Below are positions 24,216 to 28,017 of a DNA stretch of 55,925 nt, piece by piece (the stretch's first letter is position 1; each line of letters begins with the position of its first letter). Under the pieces are notes generated by a model that worked only from the letters and a program-made list of their open reading frames with translations, was not told where the DNA came from and searched no databases. A program made the position numbers and the translations under genes. This DNA is from an uncultured Bacilli bacterium (GTDB lineage: Bacteria; Bacillota_I; Bacilli_A; RFN20; CAG-826), in contig CALVLC010000024.1 in the NCBI GenBank assembly GCA_944336335.1, positions 1 through 55,925 on the forward strand, written 5' to 3'.

Positions 24216-24764
24216 ATGGATTCCAGAAGAAGTCGAACTAAACATATAATAGCTAAAGCATTCATAAGTCTTTTGAATGAAAAAGATTACGATTCAGTTA
24301 GAATTATTGAAATTTGCGAAAAAGCAATGTTATCAAAAGTGACTTTTTACAATAATTTCAAAAACAAAAGACAACTTCTAAATTACATTTTGCTTAATTT
24401 TGAAGACAAAATTAAAAAGGAGATTTCTGAATTTTCGTCTCGTCGTCAATCCACAAAAGATGCTATTTACGGAATTGTGAAAATTACATACAGAAATATT
24501 TTAAACAATCAAGATATGCTTCAAAAACTCTTACTTTCTAGAAATGCTTCCATAGCGTTTTTAGAATTGAGAGACTTTATTTATGTAGAAATCTTAAAGA
24601 ACGTTAATTCTTTACAACCTGAAGATAAAAGAAAAATACCAAAGGAATATTTCGCAGCATTTTATAGTGGCGCAATTGCAAGCATTCTACCGATGATTCT
24701 TACTACTTCAATAGATAAAGGCCCTATTTTAGATGAATCATTGCTAGTAAAATTGTTTAGTTAA
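24216..24764 (+). CDS. TetR/AcrR family transcriptional regulator
   Basis: N-terminal HTH (RTKHIIAKAF..ICEKAMLSKVTFYNNFKNK); divergent from the ABC operon. Confidence 0.92.
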   Translation: MDSRRSRTKHIIAKAFISLLNEKDYDSVRIIEICEKAMLSKVTFYNNFKNKRQLLNYILLNFEDKIKKEISEFSSRRQSTKDAIYGIVKITYRNILNNQDMLQKLLLSRNASIAFLELRDFIYVEILKNVNSLQPEDKRKIPKEYFAAFYSGAIASILPMILTTSIDKGPILDESLLVKLFS

Positions 24765-24856
24765 TACTCTATCCTTCCTGAAATTATCCGATATTTTTGC
24801 GTACATTTATTTTTGAATGACACATTTTCTTGTTTAAACTTTAGTTAACAAATTTG

Positions 24857-24885
24857 TTGCATTGTGCTTTTTACTTGTGTAACAT
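24857..24885 (+). promoter_or_regulatory. Probable promoter of tRNA-Thr
   Basis: TTGCAT-N17-TAACAT, 11 nt upstream of the tRNA. Confidence 0.55.
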
Positions 24886-24896
24886 AATAGAGTCTC

Positions 24897-24970
24897 GCAA
24901 TAGTAGTTAAATGGTATAACGGATCCATGGTAAGGATCTATTCGTAGTTCGATTCTGCGCTATTGCACCA
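24897..24970 (+). tRNA. tRNA-Thr(GGT)
   Basis: GCAATAG/CTATTGC acceptor, GATCC-AT GGT AA-GGATC anticodon arm, CGTAG-TTCGATT-CTGCG T arm, ACCA. Confidence 0.95.
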
Positions 24971-24982
24971 CATTATGTATCG

Positions 24983-25005
24983 AAGACTGGGAGACCAGTC
25001 TTTTT
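24983..25005 (+). terminator. Intrinsic terminator after tRNA-Thr
   Basis: AAGACTGG-GAGA-CCAGTCTT running into a T tract. Confidence 0.85.
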
Positions 25006-25068
25006 ATGTGGTGCATAGCGCAGTATCGAAACCCTTCCCAATCTACAGCCTTATACCATTTAACTACT
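25006..25068 (-). pseudogene. Inverted tRNA-Thr-derived sequence lacking the anticodon arm
   Basis: Minus strand AGTAGTTAAATGGTATAA (exact D-arm copy), then 20 unrelated nt, then TTCGATACTGCGCTATGCACCACAT (T loop, 3' acceptor strand, CCA). Confidence 0.75.
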
Positions 25069-25154
25069 TCCATGTTCGACTCCTTCCTTAAAATAATAGA
25101 AACAGAAAGTTTGAACAAGATTGAACCTATCGGATTTTCCTCTTCATTTATATT

Positions 25155-26438
25155 TTAAAATAGACTCAACTGTTCGTGTCTTTCTTGTCTGACAAATTTT
25201 TTAGGGTTTAATTTACATGTTTTAATGCAGTAATTTAACAAATTTTTAGCTGCATTAATATCTCTATCAGCTTTAAAACCACATTCACATTCAATTTCAT
25301 CTTTAAAAGCATCCCAATTATGCATTTCTTTATGCAGTTTTCCACAGTTCGAACAAATTTGACTAGATTTAAAATATCTATCTGCCTTAATTAAGGTTCT
25401 ATTATATTTACTGGCCTTTATTTCAAGAGCATGAAAGAAAGACGAGAGCCTCGACTTATTCACTTGTGTTCTCAAATTTATATTTTCATACATTTCTTCG
25501 ATTGAAATGTTTTCAATACAAATATACTGGTATTTCTTGCATATAACTTCAGCAATCTGATTATATTGATATATCCTATAGTTCGTTAATTTTTCAAAAG
25601 CTCTTGTTAATTTATATAGTAATCTTTTAACATTTTTAGAATTTTTATTATTACCATTCTTTTTTAAAGTTTCACGATAAAATTGCCTTATTTTGACTAT
25701 TCGGTCCATTCCGGAATCAAGAACTTTTTTATCTAAATTATATTTAGCAATACTTTCATCAGAACCTGCCACAGTAATATTTGTTCTTATGCCAACATCA
25801 ATTCCACAAGCTAGAGCTTCAGGACTAACATCTTCTCTTCTTTTATAATAAATACATCTTAAATAGTATCTACCTTCTGATTTAATAAGAACAAACTTGT
25901 TGTAATTCCTAGAGTTCAAGTTTTTAGGCCTTACTTTAATCTTAATAGAACGTAAATTAAAAACGGCGTGGTTATCGATAATTTTTAACGATCTTCCAGT
26001 TAATTTAATAACTTCTTTTTCATACTCAATAATCGAATAATTCGGTTGTTTTTTAACATAATTTCGCAACTTTTTGCTTTCAAAAAGTGAAAATGCTCTG
26101 TCCGCAACATTAGCAAAATGATCTAAATAAAGATAATTAGAAAAAGTATATCTTTTAGATTCTCTAAATTTTTTAAACATTCCAAAAACAAAAGGTCTTA
26201 GTTCACTACTTGGAATATTGTTATAATATGGATTATAAGCCACAAAACGAGTTTTGATTTCTTTATATACGTACTTTTTTAACCTATGATAAAAATCAAA
26301 TTCACGATCAAGAAATTTCACTTCTTTTTTTGTTGGATAAAGTCGATATGTATCAACTTTTAAATAAATCGGTTCTCTCATAATATTTTTTAAGATAGGC
26401 AACATTGCGCGATAACATCGCTTAGTTTCTTCAACCAT
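25155..26438 (-). CDS. tnpB: TnpB/Cas12f-like RNA-guided endonuclease, catalytic triad intact (paralog A)
   Basis: YRLYPT N-terminal motif, RuvC-I GIDVG (D214), RuvC-II ICIEN (E309), SSQICSNCG..CECG zinc finger, RuvC-III DRDINAAKNL (D393). Start may be Met20 (26381) by comparison with the paralog. Confidence 0.92.
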   Translation of the reverse strand: MVEETKRCYRAMLPILKNIMREPIYLKVDTYRLYPTKKEVKFLDREFDFYHRLKKYVYKEIKTRFVAYNPYYNNIPSSELRPFVFGMFKKFRESKRYTFSNYLYLDHFANVADRAFSLFESKKLRNYVKKQPNYSIIEYEKEVIKLTGRSLKIIDNHAVFNLRSIKIKVRPKNLNSRNYNKFVLIKSEGRYYLRCIYYKRREDVSPEALACGIDVGIRTNITVAGSDESIAKYNLDKKVLDSGMDRIVKIRQFYRETLKKNGNNKNSKNVKRLLYKLTRAFEKLTNYRIYQYNQIAEVICKKYQYICIENISIEEMYENINLRTQVNKSRLSSFFHALEIKASKYNRTLIKADRYFKSSQICSNCGKLHKEMHNWDAFKDEIECECGFKADRDINAAKNLLNYCIKTCKLNPKKFVRQERHEQLSLF

Positions 26439-26460
26439 AACGCGCCAATCGCGCGCTTAT
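26405..26460 (-). ncRNA. Candidate structured RNA/ssDNA element at the 5' end of tnpB paralog A
   Basis: GC-rich island with hairpins ATAAGCGCGC-GATTG-GCGCGTTAT and GCGAT-GTT-ATCGC; shares blocks with 27885-27937. Confidence 0.45.
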
Positions 26461-26652: not shown

Positions 26653-27855
26653 TTAGAAAAGCTCAAGTTGTTTTACATTCTCTTTTTTGAAGAAAAAACG
26701 GTTTTTCAATCCACATTTATTAATTAAATAAGAAAGAAGATTAATTCCGGCGTTTAAATCTTTATCAACTGTTGCCCCACAATCACAATGTAAAATGTTT
26801 GATGAATCATCATGAGTTAAAGCTCCGCATTCATGACAAATTTTTCCAATATCATATCCTAAATCGACATAAACTATTTTGGTGTTAAACTTTTCCGTAT
26901 AATGATTCAAGCTTTTATAAAATTCATTAAATAAGTATTTTTCAATAATTGTTTTCTGACTATTATTATAAAAATAGTTAAGATTTGCAGGTTTTTGTAT
27001 AGAAATATAATCGTATTTTTTAACAATATCTAATATCACTCTAGTATATTTTTGCCTTATTTTTCTTCTTAATTTTTCATAACAATCATCCGATTTTCTT
27101 TCTAGACGTAAAACATTATTTGATCTAAATCCACCATTATGCTTAAGACATTGTTTATGATATGTAGCAATTTTTACTAGGCGATCAATATTATAACTTT
27201 CACTCTTAAGTTCAAGATTATAAGTGGTGAAATTGTTATTTGAATCATAAACTTTAATTGATGAAAAATCACTAATAACAATTGAAGCTTCAATTTCCTC
27301 TTTTGCGTCTAAAATCTTTTCTTTATACGTTTGCCCAAATAGATAAAATTCATTATTTCTTTTCTCAACATAAAGATATCGGAAATTTCTAAAATTTTTA
27401 TTTTTAGGACTGATTTTTCCCTTTATTTTGCAGTTTAGGAACTCAACATTTTGCCATCCCATTTTAAAACTTTCTCGATCAAAACGAATTACACTACTTG
27501 AATTATAAAATGGATAATTTGTAAGTTTGACTTCTTCTTTATCTTTTTTAAGTTCAAACCTTTGAAACATTTTGAAAGATGCGAAATCAAAATGGTCAAT
27601 ATATGAATAGGAAGAGAAATCATAACGCTTACTTTCTTTAAATCTTTTTATAATTCCATATACGAGTGGTCTTAAAGAAGATGGTGCTATCCTTTTTTCA
27701 CCACCTGTAATATTGAATTTTTCTTTAATCTTTTTAGTCAAAAATTTTGTTAAACGGTCTAGAAATCTGAATTCTCGATCTAATTTTGCCTTTTCCTCTT
27801 TCGTCAAAATTAGACGAAAATGTTCAAAGTCCATATAAATATTGTCTAATTTCAT
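26653..27855 (-). CDS. TnpB-like protein, predicted nuclease-dead (paralog B)
   Basis: Collinear with paralog A (LDREF, LRP, ESKRY.FS.Y.Y.DHF, DR.VKI); zinc finger CHEC..CDCG and DKDLNAGINL kept, but RuvC-I reads ASIVISD and RuvC-II reads ISIQK. Confidence 0.85.
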   Translation of the reverse strand: MKLDNIYMDFEHFRLILTKEEKAKLDREFRFLDRLTKFLTKKIKEKFNITGGEKRIAPSSLRPLVYGIIKRFKESKRYDFSSYSYIDHFDFASFKMFQRFELKKDKEEVKLTNYPFYNSSSVIRFDRESFKMGWQNVEFLNCKIKGKISPKNKNFRNFRYLYVEKRNNEFYLFGQTYKEKILDAKEEIEASIVISDFSSIKVYDSNNNFTTYNLELKSESYNIDRLVKIATYHKQCLKHNGGFRSNNVLRLERKSDDCYEKLRRKIRQKYTRVILDIVKKYDYISIQKPANLNYFYNNSQKTIIEKYLFNEFYKSLNHYTEKFNTKIVYVDLGYDIGKICHECGALTHDDSSNILHCDCGATVDKDLNAGINLLSYLINKCGLKNRFFFKKENVKQLELF

Positions 27856-27864
27856 TGTTTAAAT

Positions 27865-27946
27865 GAGTATTATTATAAAAGTTGTTGTGTGTTTCCACTT
27901 AGCATCTTCTGCCTTAACGCCTCAACCATGCGCTTATAATAACCTC
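27865..27946 (-). ncRNA. Candidate structured RNA leader of tnpB paralog B
   Basis: Closing stem GAGGTTATTATAA..TTATAATAATACTC enclosing ATAAGCGC-ATGGTTGA..CTAA-GTG-GAAA-CAC-ACAA. Confidence 0.45.
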
Positions 27947-28017
27947 TTAATTCCTCCTTTCACTAATATAAAGGAGTTTGTTTCAAAAAAATTAAAAGAT
28001 TTTTAAAAAAAATTAAA

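Follow-up and report, generated by a model that had tools for sequence, protein, structure and literature searches.

Integrases that target tRNA genes leave partial duplications of these genes at their attL and attR attachment (att) sites, which are direct repeats of the 3' part of the tRNA and arise by site-specific recombination. Fold-back duplication, together with the correction of quasi-palindromes by template switching, is likewise a known mechanism. For Cas12k elements, att units are described in which a 17-nt spacer follows a repeat remnant and is used, with GTN as protospacer-adjacent motif (PAM), for TnsB/C/TniQ transposition; the protospacer lies in opposite orientation downstream of cas12k, and its tRNA position differs among elements (10.1101/2021.02.06.429022). 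The guides of TnpB proteins lie 3' of a conserved scaffold at the tnpB 3' end (PMC10705468). Here we analyse a 55,925-nt stretch of DNA from an uncultured Bacilli bacterium (contig CALVLC010000024.1, assembly GCA_944336335.1; hereafter the window), in which an inverted, collinear and degenerate copy of the tRNA-Thr(GGT) gene and of part of its upstream flank (25006-25135) is located between the terminator hairpin of this tRNA gene and the stop codon of tnpB1, a gene encoding a TnpB protein. The copy lies on the sense strand of tnpB1, 20-150 nt past the stop. Live gene and copy thereby constitute a quasi-palindrome of ~350 bp around the shared hairpin (24983-25002), which is the symmetry centre of the mirror and, as judged by eye and by folding, the tRNA terminator. 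The copy is best explained as a pseudogene, namely an inverted duplicate of tRNA-Thr(GGT) and ~110 nt of its upstream flank. Genomes of the genus are denoted by G-numbers, with G000 being the genome of the window, and fetched loci by L-numbers.

Results

All five pairs of complementary blocks on which the original prediction for this locus was built are present. Hereby, 24902-24919/25051-25068 match at 18 of 18 positions, 24828-24842/25106-25120 at 14 of 15 and 24786-24793/25128-25135 at 8 of 8, while 24948-24963/25015-25030 and 24964-24973/25006-25015 jointly show one mismatch and one gap. The short pair GAGTC/GACTC (24890-24894/25078-25082) is confirmed by reading, and the mirror is indeed centred on the terminator hairpin (stem 24983-24990/24995-25002). 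Local alignment of the tRNA side with the reverse complement of 25003-25154 yields a score of 31.5, which is reached by none of 2000 dinucleotide shuffles (mean 8.6). Taken by itself, the 15-mer of the upstream flank is of moderate significance (7 of 2000 shuffles reach its score), and the 8-mer and 5-mer blocks are each not significant alone. Among the 46 tRNA genes of G000, tRNA-Thr(GGT) is the only one with an inverted partial copy at a distance of up to 400 nt (E<=0.05). It also encodes the sole Thr-GGT isoacceptor of the assembly according to whole-genome ARAGORN, with Thr-CGT and Thr-TGT being encoded elsewhere.

The copy had been described as anticodon-less, with a middle part that does not align. 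A gapped alignment, however, recovers a damaged anticodon arm (GAT---TGGGAAGGGT versus GATCCATGGTAAGGAT). The middle of the copy has lost 3 nt (CCA) as well as 10 nt that make up the 5' T-stem strand together with the variable loop, and a 5-nt insertion follows the D-arm. Further out, the distance between the 15-mer and GAGTC is, by reading, 26 nt shorter on the copy side than on the live side. The D-arm and T-loop/3'-acceptor/CCA blocks are thus embedded, identical or nearly identical to the live gene, in a copy that lacks an intact promoter, 5' acceptor strand, anticodon arm and T-stem 5' strand. On the minus strand, ARAGORN calls no tRNA and a cmscan search against Rfam gives no hit at E<=1. 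The fold of the copy itself is not stable in either G000 or its relative G063 (z between -0.96 and +0.34 relative to shuffles), and its minimum-free-energy structure is not a cloverleaf (z 0.10). In conclusion, the copy is a dead tRNA gene and not an anticodon-less module, and it cannot fold as a tRNA. The suggested fold-back is physically true: RNA of 24890-25080 has a predicted folding energy of -82.4 kcal/mol (z -9.7), matched by 0 of 200 shuffles, and read-through RNA of either strand would form this hairpin of about -82 kcal/mol.

Contigs of sequencing runs show no joints across the copy. A Logan contig of run X1 (4712 nt) spans 24300-25900 in one piece, a contig of X2 spans 24930-25900, and contigs of X5 and X9 cover 25052-25554 and 25002-25349, respectively. 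These contigs stem from four runs of three studies, whereby X1 may represent the source sample of the window assembly; they cover the copy with tnpB1, and two of them bridge to the tRNA. As far as these contigs show, the copy is not an assembly artefact. They also contain two strain variants, namely 25128 T>C in X1, which alters the 8-mer, and C>A at 25037 in X9, with which the copy reads TGGTAAGG, like the tRNA.

G063 carries the same pseudo-copy downstream of its TnpB1 orthologue (66% identical). Common to both copies are the lesions of the anticodon arm, an 8-9-nt net shortening, AGATTGGG, an A preceding CTGCG and a deletion within the 3' acceptor strand. They are identical at 56 of 77 positions, with the 4-fold sites of tnpB1 being saturated between the two genomes (22 of 59 identical, i.e. 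37% versus a chance expectation of 37%) and the spacers between stop codon and copy giving no convincing alignment. The tRNAs of G000 and G063 differ at 4 of 7 acceptor positions, and the acceptor-3' segment of each copy follows the tRNA of its own genome (G000, CTA-TGC versus CTATTGC; G063, TC--GGC versus TCAAGGC). Short tail mirrors in further genomes match their own tRNA as well, at 10 of 10 positions in G066/G057 and at 8 of 8, including its own CAG, in G045. Because the acceptor segments track the respective tRNA, and because the variant at 25037 is nearer to the tRNA, either sequence passes in short patches between live gene and copy or the pairing is selected; inverted repeats cannot discriminate between the two.

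Other lineages retain other pieces. In G001 and G050 a D-loop/anticodon-arm piece adjoins the terminator, 13-15 nt of which are repeated in the promoter spacer; the promoter spacer of G008 contains 16 nt copied from the anticodon arm. A second pseudo-tRNA (copy 2), head-to-head with the live gene and just beyond its promoter, is found in G063, G066/G057, G056 and G045. Each of these second copies has a lesion of its own at the anticodon loop, be it an insert (~31 nt in one case, ~50 nt in another), a 5-nt replacement or a small deletion. In G063 the order is copy 1, live tRNA, copy 2, in alternating orientation, and the tRNA that is alive in G052 is the other one of the head-to-head pair. Judged from these sequences, differing pieces with independent lesions would be expected of differential loss after palindromic gene multiplication, which argues against one conserved sequence-specific role.

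Two details of these loci are recorded separately. The ~50-nt insert of G056 holds a 9-bp hairpin. In G052, the 3' acceptor strand of the tRNA (1251-1262) is complementary to an inverted 12-mer (L038:1223-1234) that lies 17 nt downstream and precedes a T-run, so that the tRNA tail would form one half of its own terminator stem.

To place the copy in the context of the genus, TnpB1 homologues were counted at E<=1e-25 across 60 genomes. They occur in 16, and the fetched locus of 12 of these 16 includes a tRNA-Thr(GGT), which converges with tnpB at 11 loci and is co-directional with it in G052. Each tRNA was then compared with its own locus, whereby an inverted match at up to 150 nt and E<=0.01 was counted as partial copy and L015 and L018 were dropped as they hold no whole tRNA. 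Inverted partial copies are present at 10 of the 12 TnpB loci versus 0 of 16 TnpB-less tRNA-Thr loci (best value E=0.03, G018), counts that are not phylogenetically independent and represent an estimated six or seven lineages. The two TnpB loci without a copy, G051 and G053, have only the nuclease-dead TnpB2 type described below. A miaB-like radical-SAM gene is found upstream of tnpB at most of the 12 loci. The tRNA is co-directional with this gene and just downstream of it at all 7 TnpB-less loci that hold it, and opposite to it at all 7 TnpB loci with both genes; the partial copies share the co-directional orientation that the tRNA has in TnpB-less genomes. Close TnpB1 relatives for covariation analysis were not found in genome or metagenome contigs, the alignment query giving only TnpBs of 23-37% identity. 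Of these 80 distant metagenomic TnpB loci, a single one contains a tRNA, and a partial copy is absent from all of them.

The acceptor stems of tRNA-Thr(GGT) were also compared over 28 loci (L005-L043). Eight different stems occur among the 10 nuclease-competent TnpB loci, and GCCCC[A/C]T is found at 13 of the 16 TnpB-less loci. The tRNA may thus evolve faster beside TnpB, a comparison that is confounded by phylogeny. In G001, G050, G018 and G058, an open reading frame (ORF) of ~190 amino acids abuts or overlaps the tnpB stop (L006:554-1105; L043:2679-3254; L026:2688-3281; L044:2648-3226). It shows a weak, sub-threshold match (E=0.0019) to PBECR3, a barnase/EndoU/colicin E5-D-like nuclease family, and in G001 and G050 the anticodon-arm copy comes after it.

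Coordinates of all features are collected in Table 1. TnpB1 aligns with ISDra2 TnpB structures (4e-15), and its RuvC residues D, E and D are present according to the structure alignment and a 15-sequence alignment. tnpB1 and tnpB2 are arranged in tandem and their products are 34% identical. TnpB2 retains its TNB domain despite the loss of RuvC residues, the combination of residue loss and kept fold that characterises TldR proteins, and is, by its sequence, of a nuclease-dead, TldR-like type; the orthologues in G051 and G053 have likewise lost the RuvC-I Asp, again to Val. For a guide or target of TnpB2, reading revealed no conserved 3' RNA and a genome-wide search with the 3' untranslated region (UTR) gave only short matches with chance-level E-values. 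The neighbouring ORFs encode a TetR regulator, ABC transporters and the second TnpB, tnpB2 adjoining the TetR gene and the ABC-transporter operon. Neither an integrase (six ORFs scanned) nor Tn7 genes were seen among the neighbouring ORFs, whereby the whole genome was not searched for the latter with hidden Markov models. A second insertion site of the same element was not found; all copies are at one syntenic locus, and transposon ends cannot be defined. A third, distant TnpB-like frame (30% identical) is present on contig C45 of G000 (L004:1501-2088), ~1 kb upstream of a tRNA-Leu(CAG) gene (L004:3065-3152), where there is no partial tRNA copy.

Upstream of the live tRNA, -35/-10 pairs equivalent to the putative promoter of the window can be recognised by eye in G063, G066, G001 and G008. 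Consensus scans for promoters and terminators over 24700-25250 returned nothing at the scan thresholds and left the terminator hairpin unflagged as well. Within the copy, a small minus-strand ORF (ATG at 25072, 37 codons running through the terminator, strong Shine-Dalgarno-like AAGGAAGGAG) begins where the acceptor strand was; it was rejected as a coding sequence, the matching frames in G063 holding stops. The 15-mer was considered as a TetR operator and discarded, as the window holds no additional copy with 0-1 mismatches and the motif does not occur in the tetR/ABC intergenic region. With up to 3 mismatches it has 34 matches in the window versus 24.5 +/- 4.6 in shuffles, which is not clearly above chance.

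A conserved structured element precedes every tnpB in the genus on its 5' side. It is composed of four helices, arranged as hairpin 1, a GGTT/AACT hairpin and hairpin 2, with a pseudoknot that joins the loop of hairpin 1 to a stretch following hairpin 2. Over 11 sequences, the proportion of paired cells is 90% versus 31-43% in slid controls, and 12 of 17 pairs show changes on both sides, which 0 of 500 shuffles reach. The element may be a leader or an RNA partner of this TnpB clade, in which no conserved 3' scaffold is seen. A split RNA, in which the 5' element pairs with the 3' UTR, was rejected, since the duplex energies are matched by 168 of 300 (G000) and 159 of 300 (G063) shuffles. Furthermore, a promoter/leader cassette with the hairpin CTCCTTT-N9-AAAGGAG and TATATT, followed by an ATG 5-9 nt on, is found in the window (27949-27975, minus strand) and on contigs C6, C29, C34, C44, C49 and C62. 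It is repeated at 9 places of the genome (18 strand-wise regular-expression hits) and gives further BLAST hits. The cassette in the window precedes the 5' element of tnpB2, but no ATG follows there.

Table 1. Features of the tRNA-Thr(GGT)/tnpB locus; positions refer to the window unless a fetched locus is named.
Feature	Position	Strand	Basis
Live tRNA-Thr(GGT)	24897-24970	+	ARAGORN; Rfam RF00005, 58.4 bits, hit at 24897-24967
Putative promoter 5' of the tRNA, TTGCAT-17 nt-TAACAT	24857-24885	+	Reading by eye, unconfirmed
Hairpin, stem of 8 bp (24983-24990/24995-25002) and loop of 4 nt; T-run after it on the + strand	24983-25002	.	Inverted-repeat pair and fold
Copy: T-loop, 3' T-stem, 3' acceptor strand, CCA and 3 trailer bases; 1 mismatch and 1-nt deletion	25006-25030	-	Inverted-repeat search, alignment
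Copy: damaged remnant of the anticodon arm; loss of CCA, of the variable loop and of the 5' T-stem, GGT>GGG, 5-nt insertion	25031-25050	-	Alignments
Copy: D-arm, tRNA positions 6-23, 18/18	25051-25068	-	Inverted-repeat search
Copy: scrambled 5' acceptor strand, leader GAGTC, shortened upstream flank with promoter part missing	25069-25135	-	Alignment and reading
Copy: flank blocks within the preceding feature, 15-mer and 8-mer	25106-25120; 25128-25135	-	
Second pseudo-tRNA-Thr copies	L033:3046-3130; L036:3784-3888; L034:1104-1149; L039:1117-1153		
tnpB1, ORF of 427 amino acids, probable true start near 26381	25155-26438	-	Pfam Cas12f1-like_TNB 1.3e-16, OrfB_IS605
tnpB2, RuvC-I Asp>Val and Glu>Gln	26653-27855	-	Pfam and alignments
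Conserved structured element 5' of tnpB (strand given for the window)	26393-26458; 27870-27937; also L033:1459-1524, L036:1383-1448, L025:1421-1486 and others	-	Comparative pairing

Discussion

The decayed inverted duplication that the original prediction had offered as its null explanation fits the data best, and the statement that the repeat, being inverted, is not an ordinary att site was right. Going beyond this, we lean slightly towards the view that the copy goes back to an ancient fold-back or inverted duplication tied to the residence of TnpB, and that it has been partly homogenised by short-patch copying from the live gene. According to this scenario, a TnpB gene would have settled between the miaB-like gene and tRNA-Thr. 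Later, a single, ancient inverted duplication of the tRNA and its flank could have occurred by fold-back priming or template switching at the terminator hairpin. Breaks made by a nuclease-competent TnpB are a plausible, albeit unproven, trigger, because loci with dead TnpB and TnpB-less loci are without such copies. One copy would then have stayed alive while others decayed, with blocks being refreshed from the live gene in short patches by gene conversion or quasi-palindrome correction. Lesions that block folding and expression of a second tRNA would persist in the tnpB1 3' UTR. The sole likely effect of the copy would be a longer palindrome at the shared terminator, whose read-through RNA hairpin could reinforce the insulation of tnpB1 and the tRNA from each other.

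Several observations weigh against this duplication-and-refreshing scenario. A function could just as well underlie the association with nuclease-competent TnpB, which comprises perhaps six or seven independent lineages and is confounded by phylogeny. The anticodon-arm remnant is identical between G000 and G063 at 12 of 20 positions, including an 8-nt run, despite saturated neutral sites; such a remnant is not refreshable from the tRNA, so that its retention in sequence is suggestive of constraint on the copy as such. The D-arm block, which is perfect, is farther from the centre of the palindrome than degraded parts, and simple distance-dependent correction therefore fails as an explanation. 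Blocks of 18-25 nt are, moreover, short for RecA-type conversion. Finally, a Y1 TnpA transposase was found neither in G000 (80% complete) nor in G063, so that the canonical route, in which a TnpB-made break follows excision, is at present unavailable in these genomes. Y1 transposases do occur in 11 of the 60 genus genomes at other loci, with no TnpB1/2-like neighbour in the 6 loci fetched.

As an alternative, the palindrome might be a selected insulator. Here, selection would keep the arms complementary, and read-through transcripts, be it tnpB1 mRNA running into antisense tRNA or pre-tRNA running into antisense tnpB1, would fold into a long duplex that terminates them or is cut, thereby shielding tRNA-Thr against antisense RNA and tnpB1 against read-through from the tRNA. 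The strength of the predicted 24890-25080 hairpin is consistent with this idea, as is the covariation of the arms with species-specific acceptor stems in G000, G063, G066/G057 and G045; the terminator stem that the tRNA 3' end of G052 forms with the downstream inverted 12-mer points in the same direction. Gene conversion, however, makes inverted repeats co-vary too, so that covariation does not discriminate. G051 and G053, convergent loci with TnpB2 only, do without a copy, some lineages keep pieces that do not mirror (the anticodon arm next to the terminator in G001 and G050), and by reading the outer arms lie beyond the U-tracts, so that terminated transcripts never hold both arms. Taken together, we regard a selected insulator as unlikely.

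The suggestions of a guide, scaffold or processing signal found no support, given that there is no tRNA or stable fold, no conserved scaffold and, by reading, no motif resembling a transposon-adjacent motif (TAM). Under the guide hypothesis, the 18-nt D-arm block or the ~16-nt T-loop/acceptor block would direct TnpB1 to the tRNA-Thr gene for homing, retention or regulation, and the lesions would prevent self-cleavage or tRNA-type processing, by analogy with the att guides of Cas12k. The copy does lie in sense in the tnpB1 3' UTR, just beyond the tnpB1 3' end and directly before a terminator, which is where TnpB guides and their omega-RNA or right-end RNA (reRNA) are located (PMC10705468). In length the blocks agree with guides, they track the tRNA of their own species, and at every nuclease-competent locus a tRNA-matching segment lies 0-14 nt before the terminator A-run. 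A precedent is given by Cas12k elements, in which a segment of the adjacent tRNA gene is encoded as a 17-nt copy (10.1101/2021.02.06.429022).

Set against this, we see no sign of an omega-RNA scaffold or guide in the sequence of the copy. In G000 and G063, the interval from the tnpB1 stop to the copy holds no conserved scaffold, nor was one found 5' of any block; homology between G008 and G061 stops at the tnpB stop codon, the last tenths of the tnpB ORF show no excess synonymous conservation in 11 pairs, and the window has no Rfam match for a scaffold RNA or for the 5' element. The only conserved structured element is 5' of tnpB, and its pairing with the 3' UTR is no better than random. Reading revealed no shared TAM, the bases 5' of the D-arm match differing between G000 and G063, and no shared motif 5' of the tRNA-matching blocks across lineages. 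The T-loop block of G063 has an indel in the would-be seed, and the matches of G066/G057, G045 and G056 are only 8-10 nt long. Moreover, the match comprises a collinear gene and flank, unlike a 16-20-nt spacer, and no transposase partner was found in G000. A tRNA-derived guide thus appears rather improbable. If true, however, it would let a nuclease-competent TnpB recognise its locus, including homing into empty tRNA-Thr sites, as a TnpB-level counterpart of the Cas12k att guides. Guide and acceptor stem would then evolve together, and the unusual diversity of acceptor stems in TnpB-bearing species might even be driven by the guide.

A tRNA-like processing signal, at which RNase P, RNase Z or the CCA enzyme would trim the tnpB1 transcript, could draw on the D-arm, T-loop and CCA end that are present. 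With the 5' acceptor strand scrambled, the 5' T-stem strand deleted, the anticodon stem broken by the loss of 3 nt, neither cmscan (E<=1) nor ARAGORN recognising the minus strand and minimum-free-energy folds that are not tRNA-like and no better than those of shuffles, this is very improbable. A fold-back chimera at the terminator hairpin can practically be dismissed: palindromes can cause mis-joins in short-read metagenome assemblies and the run that best holds the locus is possibly the source sample, but contigs from four runs of three studies hold the copy with tnpB1 free of joints, two of them reaching the tRNA, and the orthologous copy is present in the independent genome G063.

Conclusion

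Formation of a tRNA pseudogene by inverted duplication is ordinary, while its association with TnpB is undescribed and possibly causal; in the literature searched, mostly abstracts, we found no description of tRNA-derived sequences beside TnpB genes. Three aspects are unusual. Inverted tRNA-Thr fragments recur beside nuclease-competent TnpB at one syntenic locus and, among the genomes searched, are absent where TnpB is dead or missing, a pseudo-copy has retained part of its identity with the live tRNA among species with saturated neutral sites, and the orientation of the tRNA gene is opposite in TnpB-bearing genomes. The cross-species conservation and the genus pattern keep a functional reading alive. 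If TnpB breaks caused the duplication, these loci would record how an RNA-guided nuclease reshaped the neighbourhood of an essential gene; if the blocks were guides, they would represent a natural homing or regulatory guide of TnpB built from a tRNA gene. With respect to the RNA loading of this TnpB lineage, the covarying, pseudoknotted 5' element and the lack of a detectable 3' scaffold provide two leads.

Compared to the att duplications of integrases, the locus likewise shows a partial tRNA copy beside a mobile-element-derived gene at a tRNA locus. In contrast to these, the copy is inverted, includes the D-arm and upstream flank and is centred on the terminator, with no integrase among the six ORFs scanned. 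Omega-RNAs and the guide RNAs of TldR proteins are also found downstream of tnpB, in sense and before a terminator (PMC10705468), whereas this genus has no conserved scaffold at or after the tnpB 3' end and a structured element on the 5' side instead. With the Cas12k elements, the locus shares a Cas12/TnpB-family gene followed by a short inverted copy of part of the neighbouring tRNA, different elements using different parts (10.1101/2021.02.06.429022). Unlike a Cas12k unit it holds a degenerate copy of a whole gene, of which the 18/18 block is one of several collinear blocks, and no adjacent repeat or scaffold, TAM or transposition genes were found. The link to TnpB and the persistence across species with saturated neutral divergence were not met in the literature searched. 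The locus resembles fold-back duplication with quasi-palindrome correction in being centred on a hairpin, in the alternating orientation of its copies and in having arms that are patchily homogenised, most reliably next to the stem.

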